Numbered from the stretch's first letter, positions 38,424 to 44,842 are shown. The stretch: DNA of 64,000 nucleotides from Bacteroidales bacterium (GCA_017620015.1 JAFZRE010000033.1:146530-210529), one strand, 5' to 3'. Notes: generated by a model not told the origin, from the letters alone. Made by a program: numbers and translations.

Positions 38424-40655
38424 TTATATCAGCACCCCTATCTGATACACTCCAAATGCCACAATCCACGCAAGAACAAGCGACACGCCAGCCGACAAGG
38501 CGGCCCACTTGAAGCCAGATACCTTGCGGATTGCCGATGTGGCACCCAGACATGGGAAACATATCAGCATAAAGAAAACAAATGCCAATGCCGCAACGGA
38601 AGCATTTGCTTCGCCATCATCAGCTTCCGCAGACACTTCCTCTGTCCTATTCAGCATCGACATTGTACTGATTGACAACTCCTTGCCTGCAAATCCAGAT
38701 ATTGCTTCCACCGACATCTTCCAGTCGAAACCAAGCGGACGGAAAACAGGCTCTACAAAGTTGCCGAACTTTGCCAATGCTGATGATTCTATTTGGGCTT
38801 CTGAAACAGATGCATCTTCCCTATTTTCACCATTTTGCGGAAAATATGCCAAAGCCCACACAACTATAGCACCAAGCACAACAATTCCAGAAATGCGCTT
38901 CAGGTACTCCCAAGTGCGATTCCACATGTAACTCAATGAAATAAAGAGCGTCGGTTTCTTGTATGACGCAAGTTCAATAACATACGGATACTCATTGTTT
39001 TTCAGCAATGTTTTACTGTAGATTTTTGCAAATGCTATTGCAAGCAACATTCCCACCAGATATACGATGAACATTATCAAAGCAGGGAATTTCGGGAAGA
39101 ATGCCGACACCAAAAGCAAGCAGACTGGCACACGCGCAGCGCACGGCAAAAACGGTATGGCAAGTGTAGCCAGAATCCTGTCTTTCTTGCTTTCGATGTG
39201 CCTTGCGCTCATTATGGCAGGAATCGAGCATCCAAATCCCAGCACCATAGGAACCAACGATTTGCCCTGCAATCCAAGTCTGCGCATAAAAGCATCCACG
39301 CAATATGATGCACGCGACATATAGCCCGAATTCTCCAGAATACCAACTAACAGATAGAAAATCAAAACGTTAGGTAGCAAGGCAAGCACAGCACCGACAC
39401 CTACGACTAGTCCATCGGCAACAAAACTGCCCATTGCCCCATTCATCGACATTCGCAACGACTCCGACAATGATGCTATTCCGTTGGAAATCCACTCCAT
39501 CGGGAAGCGTCCTAGCTCAAATGTGGCGCAGAAAATTGCAGCCATCATAAGCAGGAACAACGGAAATCCCCAAGTCTTGTGCAACAGTACCGAATCGGCC
39601 TTCTCGGAATCCCACCGCGACTTGCGCACGCCAGTAACCTTCGACATCAGACCATCGATGTAAGAACGGCGAGCCTGCTTCAGAACATAATACACATGGT
39701 TGTTGAACTGCTTGCCAAGCACAGCCGAATGCATTTTTACAAAGCACTTTACGGTGTTGCACGACTTGCATGGAGTGTTGAAGCTATGCACAATCCTGTC
39801 CTCTTCGAGCAAACTTATTGCCATGTACCGCGACGAAGCATTGAAGTCATAACCTTTCTTGCCTTCCAGTTCCCTCTGTATCATGCGGATATGCCTTTCC
39901 ACCTGACGACCGTAATTCACATGAACATAGCGCATATCGGGGTTGTCACCAGCGTATGCCGACAAAATCGTGCGCATCACATTTTCACGACTTTCGCCAG
40001 TCTCATCAGCCTCGTTGTACAGAGCAATTGGAATGCCCATATACTTCGACATCTTATTCATGTCAACATGCAGCCCATCTTCATTTTCCTCGCAGTAGCC
40101 TCTTATGACAAGCACAATCTTCACACCCAAGTCCATAAGCTGGACAACAGGCACCAACTCCGTTTCCAACTTGTGGAAATCGACTACTGCGACATAAACA
40201 TCCGTCTTTTCGGCAAGCACCAAATTACGGAAACGCTTGTTGGCATAATCGTCACCAAAAATGTAATCGACTTGTGGCAAATAAGTTACGTTAATGCCAT
40301 AGTTCTCATACTTTGCATTTGCCTCCCCGCCAAACAATCCCGTGGCAAACGATTCCTTAGTCTGGAACAAGGAAACATTCACAGTATTCAGTTCGTTGAT
40401 TATAAAGTCCTGGCATTGCGGGTCGGAAGCCGAAACTAACGACAGATTAGAGAGATAAGATTTTGGGAATGTACAGTTTCGCTTGCACCCTTCGACAGAA
40501 AAAGTAAGCCGACCATCAGCATCCGACTTCAGTGCGACAATCTTCTTTCCCACCTCCATGCCAAAACCGTCAATTTTCTTACGAAAGTCGTTACAGCCAT
40601 AGATTTTGGCTATATAATATTCTTGATTACAAGCAATTTGCAAATCTTCACCCAT
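38424..40655 (-). CDS. feoB: FeoA-FeoB fusion-type ferrous iron transporter homologue with a degenerate G domain
   Basis: Start refined to 40655 (MGEDLQ..). FeoA-like SH3 N-terminus. Conserved membrane blocks ENSGYMSRASYCVDAFMRRLGLQGKSLVPMVLGFGCSIPAIMSARHIESKKDRILATL. The G1, G3 and G4 positions read FQTKESFA, YLPQ and VIRGYC. Confidence 0.85.
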   Translation of the reverse strand: MGEDLQIACNQEYYIAKIYGCNDFRKKIDGFGMEVGKKIVALKSDADGRLTFSVEGCKRNCTFPKSYLSNLSLVSASDPQCQDFIINELNTVNVSLFQTKESFATGLFGGEANAKYENYGINVTYLPQVDYIFGDDYANKRFRNLVLAEKTDVYVAVVDFHKLETELVPVVQLMDLGVKIVLVIRGYCEENEDGLHVDMNKMSKYMGIPIALYNEADETGESRENVMRTILSAYAGDNPDMRYVHVNYGRQVERHIRMIQRELEGKKGYDFNASSRYMAISLLEEDRIVHSFNTPCKSCNTVKCFVKMHSAVLGKQFNNHVYYVLKQARRSYIDGLMSKVTGVRKSRWDSEKADSVLLHKTWGFPLFLLMMAAIFCATFELGRFPMEWISNGIASLSESLRMSMNGAMGSFVADGLVVGVGAVLALLPNVLIFYLLVGILENSGYMSRASYCVDAFMRRLGLQGKSLVPMVLGFGCSIPAIMSARHIESKKDRILATLAIPFLPCAARVPVCLLLVSAFFPKFPALIMFIVYLVGMLLAIAFAKIYSKTLLKNNEYPYVIELASYKKPTLFISLSYMWNRTWEYLKRISGIVVLGAIVVWALAYFPQNGENREDASVSEAQIESSALAKFGNFVEPVFRPLGFDWKMSVEAISGFAGKELSISTMSMLNRTEEVSAEADDGEANASVAALAFVFFMLICFPCLGATSAIRKVSGFKWAALSAGVSLVLAWIVAFGVYQIGVLI

Positions 40656-40683
40656 TTCAATCTCAATTTCTCTATACAGTTTG

Positions 40684-40691
40684 CAAATGTA
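40684..40691 (-). promoter_or_regulatory. Candidate -7 box for the feoB-like gene
   Basis: TACATTTG on the minus strand, ending 28 nt before the start codon. Confidence 0.35.
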
Positions 40692-40825
40692 AAAAGCACG
40701 AAAATCTTGTCGCAAAAATATCACAACAAGATATTAACCATATTCAATGTTGTAATGTGAATAAAGCAAGGTTCAAATACCACGAAATTTTTCCGTCAAA
40801 ATTTCCGCAACTCGTCTTCTATTAT

Positions 40826-40833
40826 TATATTTG
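40826..40833 (+). promoter_or_regulatory. Candidate -7 box for the LOG-dgt-siaB-siaC unit
   Basis: TATATTTG, ending 15 nt before the ATG at 40849. Confidence 0.4.
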
Positions 40834-40848
40834 TCAAAATTTTTGAAA

Positions 40849-41430
40849 ATGACAAAATCGGTTTGTGTATTCTGCAGTTCGAGCGAAGACTTGCAGAAAG
40901 AATATTACGACTATGCAGAGCGTTTCGGCAAAATCTTAGCCGAGAACAACTTCACAATATACCACGGCGGCGGAATCATCGGTCTTATGGGCGCGATGAT
41001 GCGCGGAGCATATAGGCAAGGCGGTGCAAAAATAATCGGTGTAGTGCCCGAAAAACTTCACCGCGAAGGGATTGTATCTGACGACATGCAGGAACTTGTC
41101 GTGACCGAAGACATGAAGGAACGCAAGTCGTACCTGCGCGAACACGCCGACTCGTTCGCCATTATGCCCGGTGCTTTCGGCACAATGGACGAAATGTTTG
41201 AAATACTGACACTCAAGCAGTTGAAATACCACAACAAAGCGATTGTCATTCTCAACTTCAACCATTTCTTCGACGACATGCTAAGGCAGATGGATAAGTT
41301 CTTCGACGAAGGATTTACCATAAGCAACTACAAGACAACTTATTACGTCTGCAAAACGCCCGAAGAAGCCGTCGAATACCTCAAAAACTACAAGCCAACA
41401 CACGTTTACGACAAATACTTAAAAGAATAG
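40849..41430 (+). CDS. LOG family (TIGR00730) nucleotide 5'-monophosphate N-glycosidase
   Basis: Start refined to ATG 40849. HGGGIIGLMGAMMRG and PGAFGTMDEMFE, a variant of PGGxGTxEE. Confidence 0.85.
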   Translation: MTKSVCVFCSSSEDLQKEYYDYAERFGKILAENNFTIYHGGGIIGLMGAMMRGAYRQGGAKIIGVVPEKLHREGIVSDDMQELVVTEDMKERKSYLREHADSFAIMPGAFGTMDEMFEILTLKQLKYHNKAIVILNFNHFFDDMLRQMDKFFDEGFTISNYKTTYYVCKTPEEAVEYLKNYKPTHVYDKYLKE

Positions 41431-41432
41431 AT

Positions 41433-42551
41433 ATGAGAAACCCACTACCAGACGAAGTATATTCAAAAAGAAAGACTTACAGGGAAACAGACATACGCGG
41501 CGACTATTTCCGCGACCAGACGGCAATAATCCACTCAACGCCGTTCCGCAGGCTGAAAAAGAAAACTCAGGTTTTCTTTGCGCCTGAAAATGACCACATT
41601 TGCACACGAATTGAGCACGTATTGCACGTTGCAACCATCGCATCAACAATATGCAAGGGCTTGAACAAGGTCGGATGGGAACTTAACGACGAAATGGCCT
41701 ACGCAATAGGTCTCGGGCACGACCTAGGTCATACGCCTTTCGGTCACGCCGGAGAAAAGTCACTCGACATAATCCTCTCAAACTCAGGACACGGGCATTT
41801 CGTCCACGAAGTCAACTCATACCGTCAGGTTGCATATCTAGCCAACCACGGAAGCGGACTTAACCTCTGCTATGGTGTCATGGACGGCATAATCTGCCAC
41901 AACGGCGAACGCGATGAGCAGTACGCCTACCCGAACAAGACCGTCAACGACCTCGACGCAATAAAGGACCGCTCCGTAATGCCTTCATCCTACGAAGGTT
42001 GCATTATGCGATTCTCCGATAAGATAGCCTACCTCGGCCGCGACCTCGAAGACGCCTTTGTCGCTGGATTCATAACCGAAGACGATGTTCCGGATGATGT
42101 AAAGGAAATGCTTGGCAACCACAACGGTCAGATTATCAACTCGTTGATTCTAGACCTTATAGAAAACTCGAAGAACCGCGACATGATTGGCTTCTCCGAC
42201 GACACCTACGAAGTGGTCACAAAGCTGAAAAAATTCAACTACGAGAAGATTTACAGCAACAAGATTCTCAACGAATACGACCGTTTCTGCCACAAGATAA
42301 TAAACAACCTTTTTGACTACTTGCACGACATTTACACCAAGAACCAAAAGGACTATGGCAAATACGCTGAATCGACCATCGAACTTGATAGGTATTTCGG
42401 TCAGTACATCAATACTATGGATCACTTCTACACTTCGCGCAACGAAACCGAAATCAACATAATCACCGATTATATTTCGGGAATGACCGATGTTTTTGCA
42501 CTTGAAGCAATGAAGCAGATAACAATACCCAAACCGATAAGTTTCAAGTAA
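41433..42551 (+). CDS. dgt: dGTP triphosphohydrolase-family HD-domain protein
   Basis: FRRLKKKTQVF, TRIEHVLHV, GLGHDLGHTPFGHAGE, YISGMTD. 372 aa. Confidence 0.85.
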   Translation: MRNPLPDEVYSKRKTYRETDIRGDYFRDQTAIIHSTPFRRLKKKTQVFFAPENDHICTRIEHVLHVATIASTICKGLNKVGWELNDEMAYAIGLGHDLGHTPFGHAGEKSLDIILSNSGHGHFVHEVNSYRQVAYLANHGSGLNLCYGVMDGIICHNGERDEQYAYPNKTVNDLDAIKDRSVMPSSYEGCIMRFSDKIAYLGRDLEDAFVAGFITEDDVPDDVKEMLGNHNGQIINSLILDLIENSKNRDMIGFSDDTYEVVTKLKKFNYEKIYSNKILNEYDRFCHKIINNLFDYLHDIYTKNQKDYGKYAESTIELDRYFGQYINTMDHFYTSRNETEINIITDYISGMTDVFALEAMKQITIPKPISFK

Positions 42552-42552
42552 T

Positions 42553-43008
42553 TTGTCAAACGCAAAAACAATATTATCCTTACACTTTTCCGCAGGAAGC
42601 GACTGCAAAAACATAGTAGAAACTTTGGAGAGTCAACTTCAAGAAATCGACAAGCCTCTGCGGAAACGGATAATATCCTGTGCAATAGAACTTTTGCAGA
42701 ACAATTCCATCCACAATAATAGCAACGAAATAGACATTTCCGTCACCGAAACTGACGCCAACATTAAGCTCAACACAGCGAGGAAACTTGACGAGAAATG
42801 TGCAAAATTTCTAAATAATAAAATCCAAGAAATTAATAATATTAGCATAGGTAATTTAAAGGAATTATTTAAGAAGAATCTTAGCGCAGAAAACTTGACT
42901 CAAGGTACTGGAAACGGACTTATTCTCTGCCGTCTGAAATCAGACACTGCCATCGAAACCAAGTTTTCGGGCGAAACATTTGAAATAAACTTAACATTCA
43001 ACAAATAG
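42553..43008 (+). CDS. Small GHKL-fold protein, SiaB/RsbW-like Ser/Thr kinase (apparent TTG start)
   Basis: N-box-like AIELLQNNSIHN and G-box-like QGTGNGLILC. 151 aa. TTG lies 1 nt after the dgt stop, with no internal Met. Confidence 0.6.
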   Translation: MSNAKTILSLHFSAGSDCKNIVETLESQLQEIDKPLRKRIISCAIELLQNNSIHNNSNEIDISVTETDANIKLNTARKLDEKCAKFLNNKIQEINNISIGNLKELFKKNLSAENLTQGTGNGLILCRLKSDTAIETKFSGETFEINLTFNK

Positions 43009-43011
43009 AAA

Positions 43012-43380
43012 ATGAACGTACTAGTAGAAGCAACAGGAAAAACGCCACACATATACGAGGAAAACGGCGACCTCTGCGTATGGGGTGTCATCATACCAGA
43101 GAATCCTACTGAAATATTTGCAAGGCTAAACAACATTGTATCAACAAAATACGCAGAGAACCACAAACTCAAAATCCACTTCTCGCTTGGATACTTCAAC
43201 ACGAGTTCCGCAAAGTTCCTGTACAACTTCTTCAAGAAACTCAAAGGTAATGAAGGCATTACAATCGTATGGCACTACGAAGCCGATGACGAGGACATCC
43301 TCGACAGCGGCAAGGAATTTGAAGAAATTTCAGGGCTAAAGTTCGAGTACTCAGACACTTTGCTGGATGTTTCAAAATAA
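43012..43380 (+). CDS. DUF1987 / SiaC-like regulatory phosphoprotein
   Basis: 122 aa. LGYFNTSSAKFLYNFFKKL and WHYEADDEDILDSGKEF are typical of DUF1987. Confidence 0.7.
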   Translation: MNVLVEATGKTPHIYEENGDLCVWGVIIPENPTEIFARLNNIVSTKYAENHKLKIHFSLGYFNTSSAKFLYNFFKKLKGNEGITIVWHYEADDEDILDSGKEFEEISGLKFEYSDTLLDVSK

Positions 43381-43387
43381 TGACATG

Positions 43388-43425
43388 ATATTGTAGCGAC
43401 GCAATGCATTGCGCCGCTACAATAT
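43388..43425. terminator. 38-nt palindrome closing the four-gene unit (TGTAGC...GCTACA family)
   Basis: atattgtagcgacgcaatgcattgcgccgctacaatat, with one mismatch. Starts 8 nt after the stop. Confidence 0.65.
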
Positions 43426-43534
43426 GTTATTTCATTCAATATTTTAGGGATTATGGAAAACAAACAATGTTAAAAAACATTTTTCCACATAAGAAAAATT
43501 TATTAACATTGTGAAATTTTAAAATTACATAGAC

Positions 43535-44842
43535 ATGGCTAACACACCAATTTGTGACACAGTTATTCAGGAACAATGCCGTAAGTTGGGAATCAACAAC
43601 ATAGGCAAATCGACAATCAGAGAAATTGTCGGATTAGTAAATTGCATAGAGAAGGAAACCGGCGTGAAATTCGTCAGGATGGAGATGGGCGTACCGAGCC
43701 TCAAGCCGCCAAAGGTTGGCACCGATGCAGAAATCAAGGCTCTCAACGACGGCGTAGCTGCCATCTACCCGATGGTGGACGGTGTTCCAGAACTCAAGAA
43801 AGAAGCATCAAGGTTCGTAAAGAACTTTATCGGAGTTGACATATCGCCAGAATGCTGCATACCGACAGTCGGATCAATGCAAGGCGGTTACGCAACCTTC
43901 CTCACCTGCTCGAACCTCGACCCGCAGAAGGACACCGCTCTGTTCATCGACCCAGGATTCCCAGTGCAGAAACAGCAGTTCAATGTAATGGGACACAAGT
44001 ACGAAAGCTTTGATGTTTACGATTACCGCGGCGAAAAACTTCGCGAAAAGCTGGAATCTTACCTCTCGAAAGGCAACATCAACTCGATAATCTACTCCAA
44101 CCCCAACAACCCGAGCTGGATATGCTTCACCGACGATGAACTGAAAATCATCGCCGAGGTTGCCGACAAGTACGATGCAATCGTAATCGAAGACCTTGCT
44201 TACTTCCGCATGGATTTCCGCGATGACACCTATCATCCAGGATTCCCGCCATATCAGGCATCGGTCGCAAACTACACCGACAACTACATACTTATGATTT
44301 CAGGCTCCAAGGCTTTCAGCTATGCCGGTCAGCGCGTGGCTGTTGTGGCAATTTCCGACAAGGTTTTCCACCGCAACTACCCCAACCTACAGAAACGCTT
44401 TGGTAGAGAACAGTTTGGCGCCACATTCGTAATGCGAATCATCTACGCATTGAGTTCGGGCGTTTGCCACTCGGCACAGTATGGTCTGGCAGCAATGCTT
44501 AAGGCCGCAAACGATGGCACTTTCAACTTCATAAAGGACATCGAGGAATACGGAAAGCGTGCCGAAAAGATGAAGAAACTTTTCGTTGACGCTGGATTCT
44601 CAATAGTTTACGACAAGGATATCGACAAGGACTTGGCAGACGGATTCTACTTCACCATAACCTACAAGGACTGGACTGGAGACAAGTTATTGGAAGAACT
44701 TCTGCACTACGGAATCAGCGCAATCACCCTTGACAACACAGGTAGCAAAAAGTACGGACTTCGCGCCTGCGTATCGCAGATTACGCCAGACAAGATGGAA
44801 TTGCTCGAAAAGCGTCTAGAAATATACAAGCAGAACCACTAG
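43535..44842 (+). CDS. Class I/II PLP-dependent aminotransferase
   Basis: 435 aa. NPNNPSW, and SGSKAFSYAGQRVA carrying the PLP lysine. Confidence 0.85.
   Translation: MANTPICDTVIQEQCRKLGINNIGKSTIREIVGLVNCIEKETGVKFVRMEMGVPSLKPPKVGTDAEIKALNDGVAAIYPMVDGVPELKKEASRFVKNFIGVDISPECCIPTVGSMQGGYATFLTCSNLDPQKDTALFIDPGFPVQKQQFNVMGHKYESFDVYDYRGEKLREKLESYLSKGNINSIIYSNPNNPSWICFTDDELKIIAEVADKYDAIVIEDLAYFRMDFRDDTYHPGFPPYQASVANYTDNYILMISGSKAFSYAGQRVAVVAISDKVFHRNYPNLQKRFGREQFGATFVMRIIYALSSGVCHSAQYGLAAMLKAANDGTFNFIKDIEEYGKRAEKMKKLFVDAGFSIVYDKDIDKDLADGFYFTITYKDWTGDKLLEELLHYGISAITLDNTGSKKYGLRACVSQITPDKMELLEKRLEIYKQNH

Follow-up and report, generated by a model that had tools for sequence, protein, structure and literature searches.

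A SiaB/SiaC-like kinase and phosphoprotein pair in one operon with a LOG-family nucleosidase and a dGTPase-type HD enzyme in uncultured Bacteroidales

The closest described relative of the locus considered here is the SiaABCD system of Pseudomonas aeruginosa, which comprises the kinase SiaB, the DUF1987 phosphoprotein SiaC, the PP2C phosphatase SiaA, and the diguanylate cyclase SiaD (PDB 6KKO, 6KKP, 7E6G). Control of bacterial deoxynucleoside triphosphate (dNTP) pools is known mainly through synthesis by ribonucleotide reductase and through nucleotide allostery of the dNTP triphosphohydrolases (dNTPases); to our knowledge, known control of the bacterial dNTPases is allosteric and exerted by nucleotides or DNA. 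Phage T7 Gp1.2, which controls E. coli Dgt, is a precedent for the regulation of an enzyme of the Dgt family by a small protein. In a 64,000-nucleotide stretch of Bacteroidales DNA (GCA_017620015.1 JAFZRE010000033.1:146530-210529; hereafter the window), a SiaB-like (DUF6272) gene and a SiaC-like (DUF1987) gene directly follow the genes for a LOG-family nucleosidase and a dGTPase-type HD enzyme. Comparative analysis suggests that a Sia-type switch was recruited once to an older LOG-dNTPase pair and that the SiaC-like protein may bind the dNTPase (or LOG) in a phosphorylation-dependent manner, a reading to which we give about an even chance of being right. In the literature searched, we found no bacterial dNTPase with an endogenous protein regulator gated by phosphorylation, no mention of DUF6272, and no link between DUF1987 and dGTPases; a first-pass annotation of the window had supposed the four-gene combination to be undescribed, and no description of it was found in that literature either.

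Several traits are shared with SiaABCD. The phosphoprotein gene directly follows the kinase gene, the folds match (template modeling (TM) scores of 0.75–0.80), the predicted catalytic glutamate of SiaB is conserved, as is the N-T-S phospho-acceptor segment that opens SiaC helix 2, and the pair is co-transcribed with an enzyme that is its plausible output. Unlike SiaABCD, the block belongs to a Bacteroidales lineage, lacks a SiaA-type phosphatase and a GGDEF protein, and has as its enzymes a dNTP triphosphohydrolase and a LOG nucleosidase. Its kinase is shorter than SiaB (151 versus ~180 amino acids), lacks the TGN motif, and carries a 2-residue deletion in the G-box. The block also resembles RsbW/RsbV and SpoIIAB/SpoIIAA, its second-best structural matches, which likewise pair a GHKL Ser/Thr kinase with a small α/β antagonist phosphorylated at a helix start. 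However, a STAS domain serves as the antagonist in those systems and the kinase holds a sigma factor as the output, whereas the phosphoprotein of the block belongs to DUF1987 and no sigma factor is linked to it.

The four genes form one operon and are co-transcribed. All lie on the + strand, with intergenic gaps of 2, 1, and 3 nucleotides according to the open reading frame (ORF) listing and the sequence, and their predicted products are (i) a LOG-family (TIGR00730, type-I LOG-like) nucleotide 5′-monophosphate phosphoribohydrolase of 193 amino acids (40849–41430), assigned by profile and structure matches; (ii) a dGTPase-type HD dNTP triphosphohydrolase of 372 amino acids (41433–42551), assigned by profiles and HD motifs; (iii) a SiaB-like GHKL kinase-like protein (DUF6272) of 151 amino acids (42553–43008), assigned by PF19788 and a fold model; and (iv) a SiaC-family (DUF1987) phosphoprotein-like protein of 122 amino acids with Thr64 in a YFNTSS motif (43012–43380), assigned by PF09345 and a fold model. 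The LOG start codon is the ATG at 40849, in agreement with the N-termini of all homologs; the TTG at 40831 proposed by the ORF lister falls inside the promoter box described below. The SiaB-like gene starts with a TTG one nucleotide past the HD stop codon, at the position of the ATG starts of its relatives. It shares its reading frame with the SiaC-like gene across a TAG, and read-through would join the two proteins by a 2-residue linker.

A Bacteroidetes-type −7 box, TATATTTG (TAnnTTTG; 40826–40833, + strand), is read in the sequence 16 nucleotides before the LOG start codon and is the sole TAnnTTTG on the + strand within 40500–43600. In 17 related loci it is kept at a distance of 23–24 nucleotides before the LOG ATG; among them are L001, L003, and L006, which have different upstream genes. 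The box is the putative promoter of the operon, a role assigned from the known Bacteroidetes consensus. At the other end, 8 nucleotides after the SiaC-like stop codon, lies a terminator-like 38-nucleotide palindromic hairpin with one mismatch (43388–43425, + strand), which folds at −24 kcal/mol (z-score of −4.83), a stability that none of 200 shuffled sequences matched. The palindrome has no U-tract and was missed by a sigma-70 promoter/terminator scan, which is uninformative for Bacteroidetes. The next gene downstream, encoding an aminotransferase, starts at 43535.

Contigs from rumen metatranscriptomes span every junction of the block and together cover all four genes. The LOG-HD junction is spanned by X23 record 18 (41090–41647) and by X24 records 28 and 30, the HD-SiaB junction by X35 record 8 (42457–42716) and X32 record 7, and the SiaB-SiaC junction by X21 record 8 (42854–43353). 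The first-pass annotation had claimed the three short gaps, the −7 box, the 38-nucleotide palindrome, and a single transcription unit; the ORF listing, sequence, and RNA fold reproduce the first three, and the single box, the terminal hairpin, and RNA-derived contigs over all three junctions bear out the last. The motifs it had read in the translations (GGGIIGLMG, PGAFGTMDE, GHDLGHTPFGH, ELLQNNSIHN, GTGNGL, and FNTSS) were all found there, and profile searches agree with its four family assignments (LOG, dGTPase-type HD, SiaB-like, and SiaC/DUF1987), the small proteins passing PF19788 and PF09345.

The LOG protein scores 156.6 bits on TIGR00730 (cutoff 96.35), matches PF03641 with E = 1e-34, and matches the type-I LOG structures 2a33, 5zbj, and 1t35 with E-values of 1e-31 to 1e-35. 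It falls short of the cutoff of the cytokinin-LOG equivalog model (114.5 versus 300). Its GGGIIGLMG segment fits the GGGxxGxMG motif, and in PGAFGTMDE the second glycine has been replaced by alanine in the sublineage of the window, deeper relatives having PGGFGT.

The HD enzyme combines PF01966 and PF13286 domains and scores 178.9 bits on TIGR01353 (cutoff 152.35). Among solved structures, the Thermus dNTPase 2dqb (Thermus thermophilus TT1383) is the closest relative (E = 2e-29), and with TT1383 and other housekeeping dNTPases such as E. faecalis EF1143 the enzyme shares both its catalytic motifs and its combination of HD and HD_assoc domains. The metal motifs (H62, H96, and D97 as well as other motif residues) are invariant in an alignment of 11 orthologs. 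HD orthologs are 60–90% identical, ~60% even across phyla, and very widely distributed. Two orthologs lack the switch: the one in L092 (4001–8640) adjoins the nucleoside-salvage genes PNP_UDP_1, AdoHcy hydrolase, and amidohydrolase, and the stop codon of the one in L174 (4001–5925) is overlapped by a Cu-oxidase_4/YfiH-type gene. Both neighborhoods fit a catabolic or salvage role of the HD enzyme.

The SiaB-like protein scores 46 bits on PF19788 (DUF6272; cutoff 26.6). A single-sequence phmmer search of the PDB returned noise only, and a 16-sequence DUF6272 profile matches P. aeruginosa SiaB (6kko_A) with E = 4e-20. The best PDB matches of its AlphaFold model (predicted local distance difference test (pLDDT) score of 92.3) are 6kko_A and 6kko_B, with TM scores of 0.75–0.77, followed by SpoIIAB and RsbW, and the modeled protein has the SiaB fold. 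Five residues (Glu45, Gln48, Asn49, Gly119, and Gly121) do not vary among 63 homologs, and Glu45 aligns with SiaB Glu61, the predicted catalytic residue of that kinase (10.1101/674879).

The SiaC-like protein scores 70.5 bits on PF09345 (cutoff 24.5). In the alignment to P. aeruginosa SiaC (6kko_C), its YFNTSS falls on YLNTSS and its Thr64 on Thr68, which is the residue phosphorylated by SiaB and which, with N67 and S69, contacts SiaD (PMC8457831; 10.1101/674879). The top 8 PDB matches of its AlphaFold model (pLDDT 92.8) are all SiaC (TM 0.77–0.80, root-mean-square deviation 2.1–2.9 Å), and the modeled protein has the SiaC fold, with Thr64 opening the helix 64–76 as Thr68 does in SiaC. A threonine is kept at the phospho-acceptor position in 37 of 38 SiaC homologs, the exception being L175, which has serine. 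The helix-2 residues that follow are clade-specific, with A[KR][FY]LY in the HD-linked clade versus SKCIL elsewhere, a difference that would fit a different, clade-specific target of the SiaC-like protein. No SiaC-HD fusion was present among the 150 best family representatives, which contained double-SiaC and other fusions only; many double-SiaC proteins of 245–281 amino acids were among them. At L139 (4075–5366), a natural fusion of 290 amino acids carries DUF6272 at its N-terminus and SiaC at its C-terminus, followed by a free second SiaC-like gene, with no HD gene nearby. As a Rosetta-stone protein, this fusion lends support to a predicted interaction between DUF6272 and SiaC.

Outside the block, the pair recurs in Flavobacteriales and other Bacteroidota with the same Pfam families, gene order, and invariant YFNTSS. 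A SiaC-side survey of species-representative genomes gave 80 loci, nine of them HD-linked, and six further loci were fetched. The 71 Flavobacteriales and other Bacteroidota loci, whose SiaC proteins are ~40% identical, carry a DUF6272+SiaC pair that is never near HD or LOG (none within 7 kb) and that differs from the pair of the block in having a long kinase (~180 amino acids) with an intact TGN motif and GGGGLG. These Flavobacteriales-type pairs form a separate clade, divided from the HD-linked clade by a long, fully supported branch. Their recurring neighbors are an ABC transporter, a methyltransferase, and, in ~20 loci, a Reg_prop/Y_Y_Y-SpoIIE sensor phosphatase, which the block lacks. In L030 (3113–6322) and ~20 other loci, this protein of ~1070 amino acids (Reg_prop β-propeller, Y_Y_Y, transmembrane segment, and SpoIIE/PP2C domain) is encoded just upstream of the long-type pair, and by its domain content it is a predicted analogue of SiaA that carries another kind of sensor and has no evident output enzyme beside it.

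The full block was found in fifteen loci of uncultured rumen/gut Bacteroidales (nine of the 80 plus the six fetched), over which identity to the window is 43–98% for SiaC, 73–99% for HD, 52–98% for LOG, and only 35–85% for SiaB. On the HD side, contigs with dGTPase orthologs of differing divergence were surveyed. The full block accompanies HD enzymes 69% (L088, with a truncated kinase), 67% (L091), and 66% (L089) identical to that of the window. L087 (70%) has LOG-HD only, L174 (62%) has LOG, then HD, then the Cu-oxidase_4 gene with the pair absent, and L175 (61%) has LOG, HD, an ORF of 92 amino acids, and SiaC; HD stands alone in L090 and in L092 and L093, which were judged non-Bacteroidota (60% in each case). 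Because LOG-HD occurs without the SiaB/SiaC pair in L087 and L174, the LOG-HD pair is the older element. A metagenome scan seeded with divergent members added L096–L105 and L107. HD-SiaC linkage is thus seen in 30 loci, whose neighbors belong to at least 9 families on the upstream side and at least 13 on the downstream side. With flanks shuffled to this extent, the adjacency of the block is far beyond chance, and the possibility raised by the first-pass annotation that the genes merely happen to be adjacent gives way to a conserved four-gene arrangement.

HD-linked SiaC proteins make up one clade (100/99 support) that a long branch splits from the rest, and when the four genes are compared by their matrices of pairwise distances, these correlate with r = 0.76–0.92 (no more than 2 of 2000 permutations were as high). 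The block therefore arose once and has since been inherited whole. HD is the least divergent of the genes, with a mean pairwise distance of 0.26, followed by LOG (0.41), SiaC (0.53), and SiaB (0.67). The ratio of nonsynonymous to synonymous substitution rates (dN/dS) against close relatives follows the same order, at 0.004–0.03, 0.01–0.06, 0.04–0.10, and 0.11–0.24, respectively. All four genes are, to judge from these ratios, under purifying selection and functional, the kinase being the least constrained. Compared with L011–L013, the SiaB/SiaC pair (42553–43380) has dS values of 1.6–2.3, above the 0.5–1.0 of LOG, HD, and the aminotransferase gene on either side, which suggests that recombination has moved the regulatory pair from strain to strain, although the dS estimates may be saturating. 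In several deep lineages (L089, L091, L096–L099, and L175), dnaA lies divergently upstream of the block, sometimes with one small ORF between. The ancestral operon may have adjoined this replication-initiator gene, a position that hints at a coupling of the block to replication.

Conservation of this kind could also arise if the pair were a passenger, co-transcribed with LOG-HD yet acting on an unlinked enzyme, transcription factor, or sigma factor, the gene order reflecting co-expression or inheritance. The linkage arose once, so that phylogenetic inertia could account for part of its conservation; no adaptation is visible in the linked HD sequences; the ABC transporter, methyltransferase, and Reg_prop-Y_Y_Y-SpoIIE phosphatase beside the same families in other Bacteroidota indicate that neighbors are not always targets; and the phosphatase must be unlinked in any case. 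However, the block was never split while its surroundings were rearranged at least 9 times upstream and at least 13 times downstream, its junctions measure −23 to +22 nucleotides in all lineages, SiaC stays with HD after loss of its own kinase, and the clade-specific helix-2 residues agree with a clade-specific target. On balance, an unlinked target is rather unlikely.

The fate of the kinase in three lineages is informative about which protein contacts the output. In L107, HD is followed after 9 nucleotides by SiaC, the kinase being absent; in L088, a stop codon ends DUF6272 ahead of the G-box and SiaC is retained; and in L175, an unrelated ORF of 92 amino acids occupies the kinase position and SiaC has YFNSSS. 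This ORF (L175:5145–5423) encodes a CxxY…CxxC zinc-ribbon-like motif and a C-terminal hydrophobic helix and has no Pfam match. Retention of SiaC in the three lineages ties it to HD (or LOG) and not merely to its own kinase. Its position directly after HD despite kinase loss favors wiring of the Sia type, where it is the phosphoprotein that makes contact with the output, over wiring of the Rsb type, in which the SiaB-like protein would hold or inhibit the dNTPase or LOG and the unphosphorylated SiaC-like protein would sequester SiaB and relieve the enzyme. The structural resemblance of the SiaB-like model, after SiaB itself, to SpoIIAB and RsbW, which hold their targets directly, would suit the Rsb arrangement, as would the single nucleotide between the HD stop codon and the SiaB-like gene. 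Lineages that keep SiaC with the kinase lost, truncated, or replaced are hard to square with SiaB as the effector-binding subunit, and SiaB does not bind the output in the only characterized SiaB/SiaC system (PMC7278518). Wiring of the Rsb type is accordingly judged improbable.

The first-pass annotation had also raised a defense role. On such a reading, the dGTPase would be an effector of anti-phage nucleotide depletion, restrained by the SiaB/SiaC switch until infection. PADLOC matches HD with its generic dGTPase model (199 bits), and dGTPase-family and SLOG/LOG-fold enzymes are reported to occur in defense systems (10.1101/2021.04.26.441389). The SiaB-like gene also evolves fast (0.67 versus 0.26 for HD), and the dS excess would be consistent with exchange of the pair between strains. 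Against these points, the HD enzyme stays far below the NCBIfam anti-phage dGTPase models NF041026 and NF003701 (151.4 versus 400 and 131.1 versus 383), is ~60% identical in other phyla and very widespread, and has a dN/dS (0.004–0.03) typical of core metabolism, and the other three proteins have no PADLOC match. The neighbors are housekeeping genes, comprising BatD-like, feoB-like, aminotransferase, and glycosyltransferase genes in the window and dnaA (in several lineages), glnA, and yceG among those of relatives. A defense-island context or patchy distribution, for which the annotation had proposed a check, is thus replaced by housekeeping flanks and vertical descent. The anti-phage reading is unlikely, indeed very much so. 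The FeoB-like gene of the window (38424–40655, − strand) has a partial match to the FeoB_N G-domain only (positions 42–148 of 156, 42.8 bits).

The reading we favor, a Sia-type switch attached to the two enzymes, can be stated as a sequence of steps. A SiaB/SiaC-type pair would have been added once, in the ancestor of an uncultured Bacteroidales clade, to the 3′ end of an older housekeeping pair, LOG and dNTPase. As SiaC activates its neighbor SiaD, so the unphosphorylated SiaC-like protein would bind the neighboring dNTPase (less likely LOG) and alter its activity or oligomeric state. DUF1987 proteins have been proposed to modulate adjacent proteins generally, and SiaC drives a pentamer-to-dimer switch of SiaD (PMC8457831). 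The SiaB-like kinase would use ATP to phosphorylate Thr64 and thereby release the SiaC-like protein. Because one mRNA makes all four proteins and no phosphatase is linked, reset would possibly come from an unlinked phosphatase or from protein turnover. Such a switch would tie dNTP and nucleotide breakdown to the cellular ATP, energy, or growth state. In its more specific form, which we put forward tentatively and with less than even confidence, the SiaC-like protein would be a phosphorylation-gated regulatory subunit of a housekeeping dNTPase and the kinase would read the ATP/energy state, coupling dNTP breakdown to growth; bacterial dNTPases would thereby have a first example of control by an endogenous protein partner, and Sia-type switches a first output other than cyclic di-GMP (c-di-GMP).

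Several points weigh against such a switch. The contact of SiaC with HD or LOG is deduced from gene-order conservation and from SiaC retention next to HD, and the linkage behind that deduction arose once, with no independent, convergent association. The HD enzyme of the unlinked L087 has no obvious difference from linked HDs, and no docking feature was seen in the 11-sequence alignment, in which unlinked orthologs are too few and too distant to make the comparison a fair one. The metatranscriptome contigs are of low depth, come from relatives 90–97% identical to the window, and may include DNA carry-over. A SpoIIE-domain hidden Markov model built from the Flavobacteriales-type phosphatases, which detects ~20 in loci of that type, found no PP2C in the 64-kb window or the other HD-linked loci, and a kinase-only switch would be unusual. 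No GGDEF domain was present in the four block proteins, the nine neighbors scanned, or the gene tables of related loci; in both respects, the SpoIIE model and domain scans agree with the first-pass annotation, which had noted that the block contains neither a phosphatase nor a GGDEF gene. Finally, the SiaB-like protein scores 34.9 versus a cutoff of 85 on the NCBIfam SiaB-family model (NF038262), and the SiaC-like protein scores 47.4 versus 150 bits on the SiaC equivalog NF038265 (biofilm regulation phosphoprotein); the two are therefore family members and not orthologs. Compared with Flavobacteriales-type DUF6272 and SiaB, HD-linked kinases as a group have no TGN (G1-like) motif and a G-box region 2 residues shorter. 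Owing to the score below the SiaB cutoff, the missing TGN, and the G-box deletion, kinase competence of the SiaB-like protein is likely but not certain.

The eukaryotic dNTPase SAMHD1 is gated by phosphorylation. If the proposed switch is real, bacteria would have a counterpart of SAMHD1 gating in which a Ser/Thr partner switch is wired to a dNTPase and to a LOG nucleosidase, the DUF1987/SiaC switch would extend beyond c-di-GMP signaling, and DUF6272 would be assigned a testable role. The carriers are abundant uncultured Bacteroidales of the rumen and gut, and the proteins are small and soluble-looking, so that testing in vitro is feasible. For these organisms, the operon suggests an undescribed control of DNA-building-block pools, a control that we infer from the conserved company its four genes keep.

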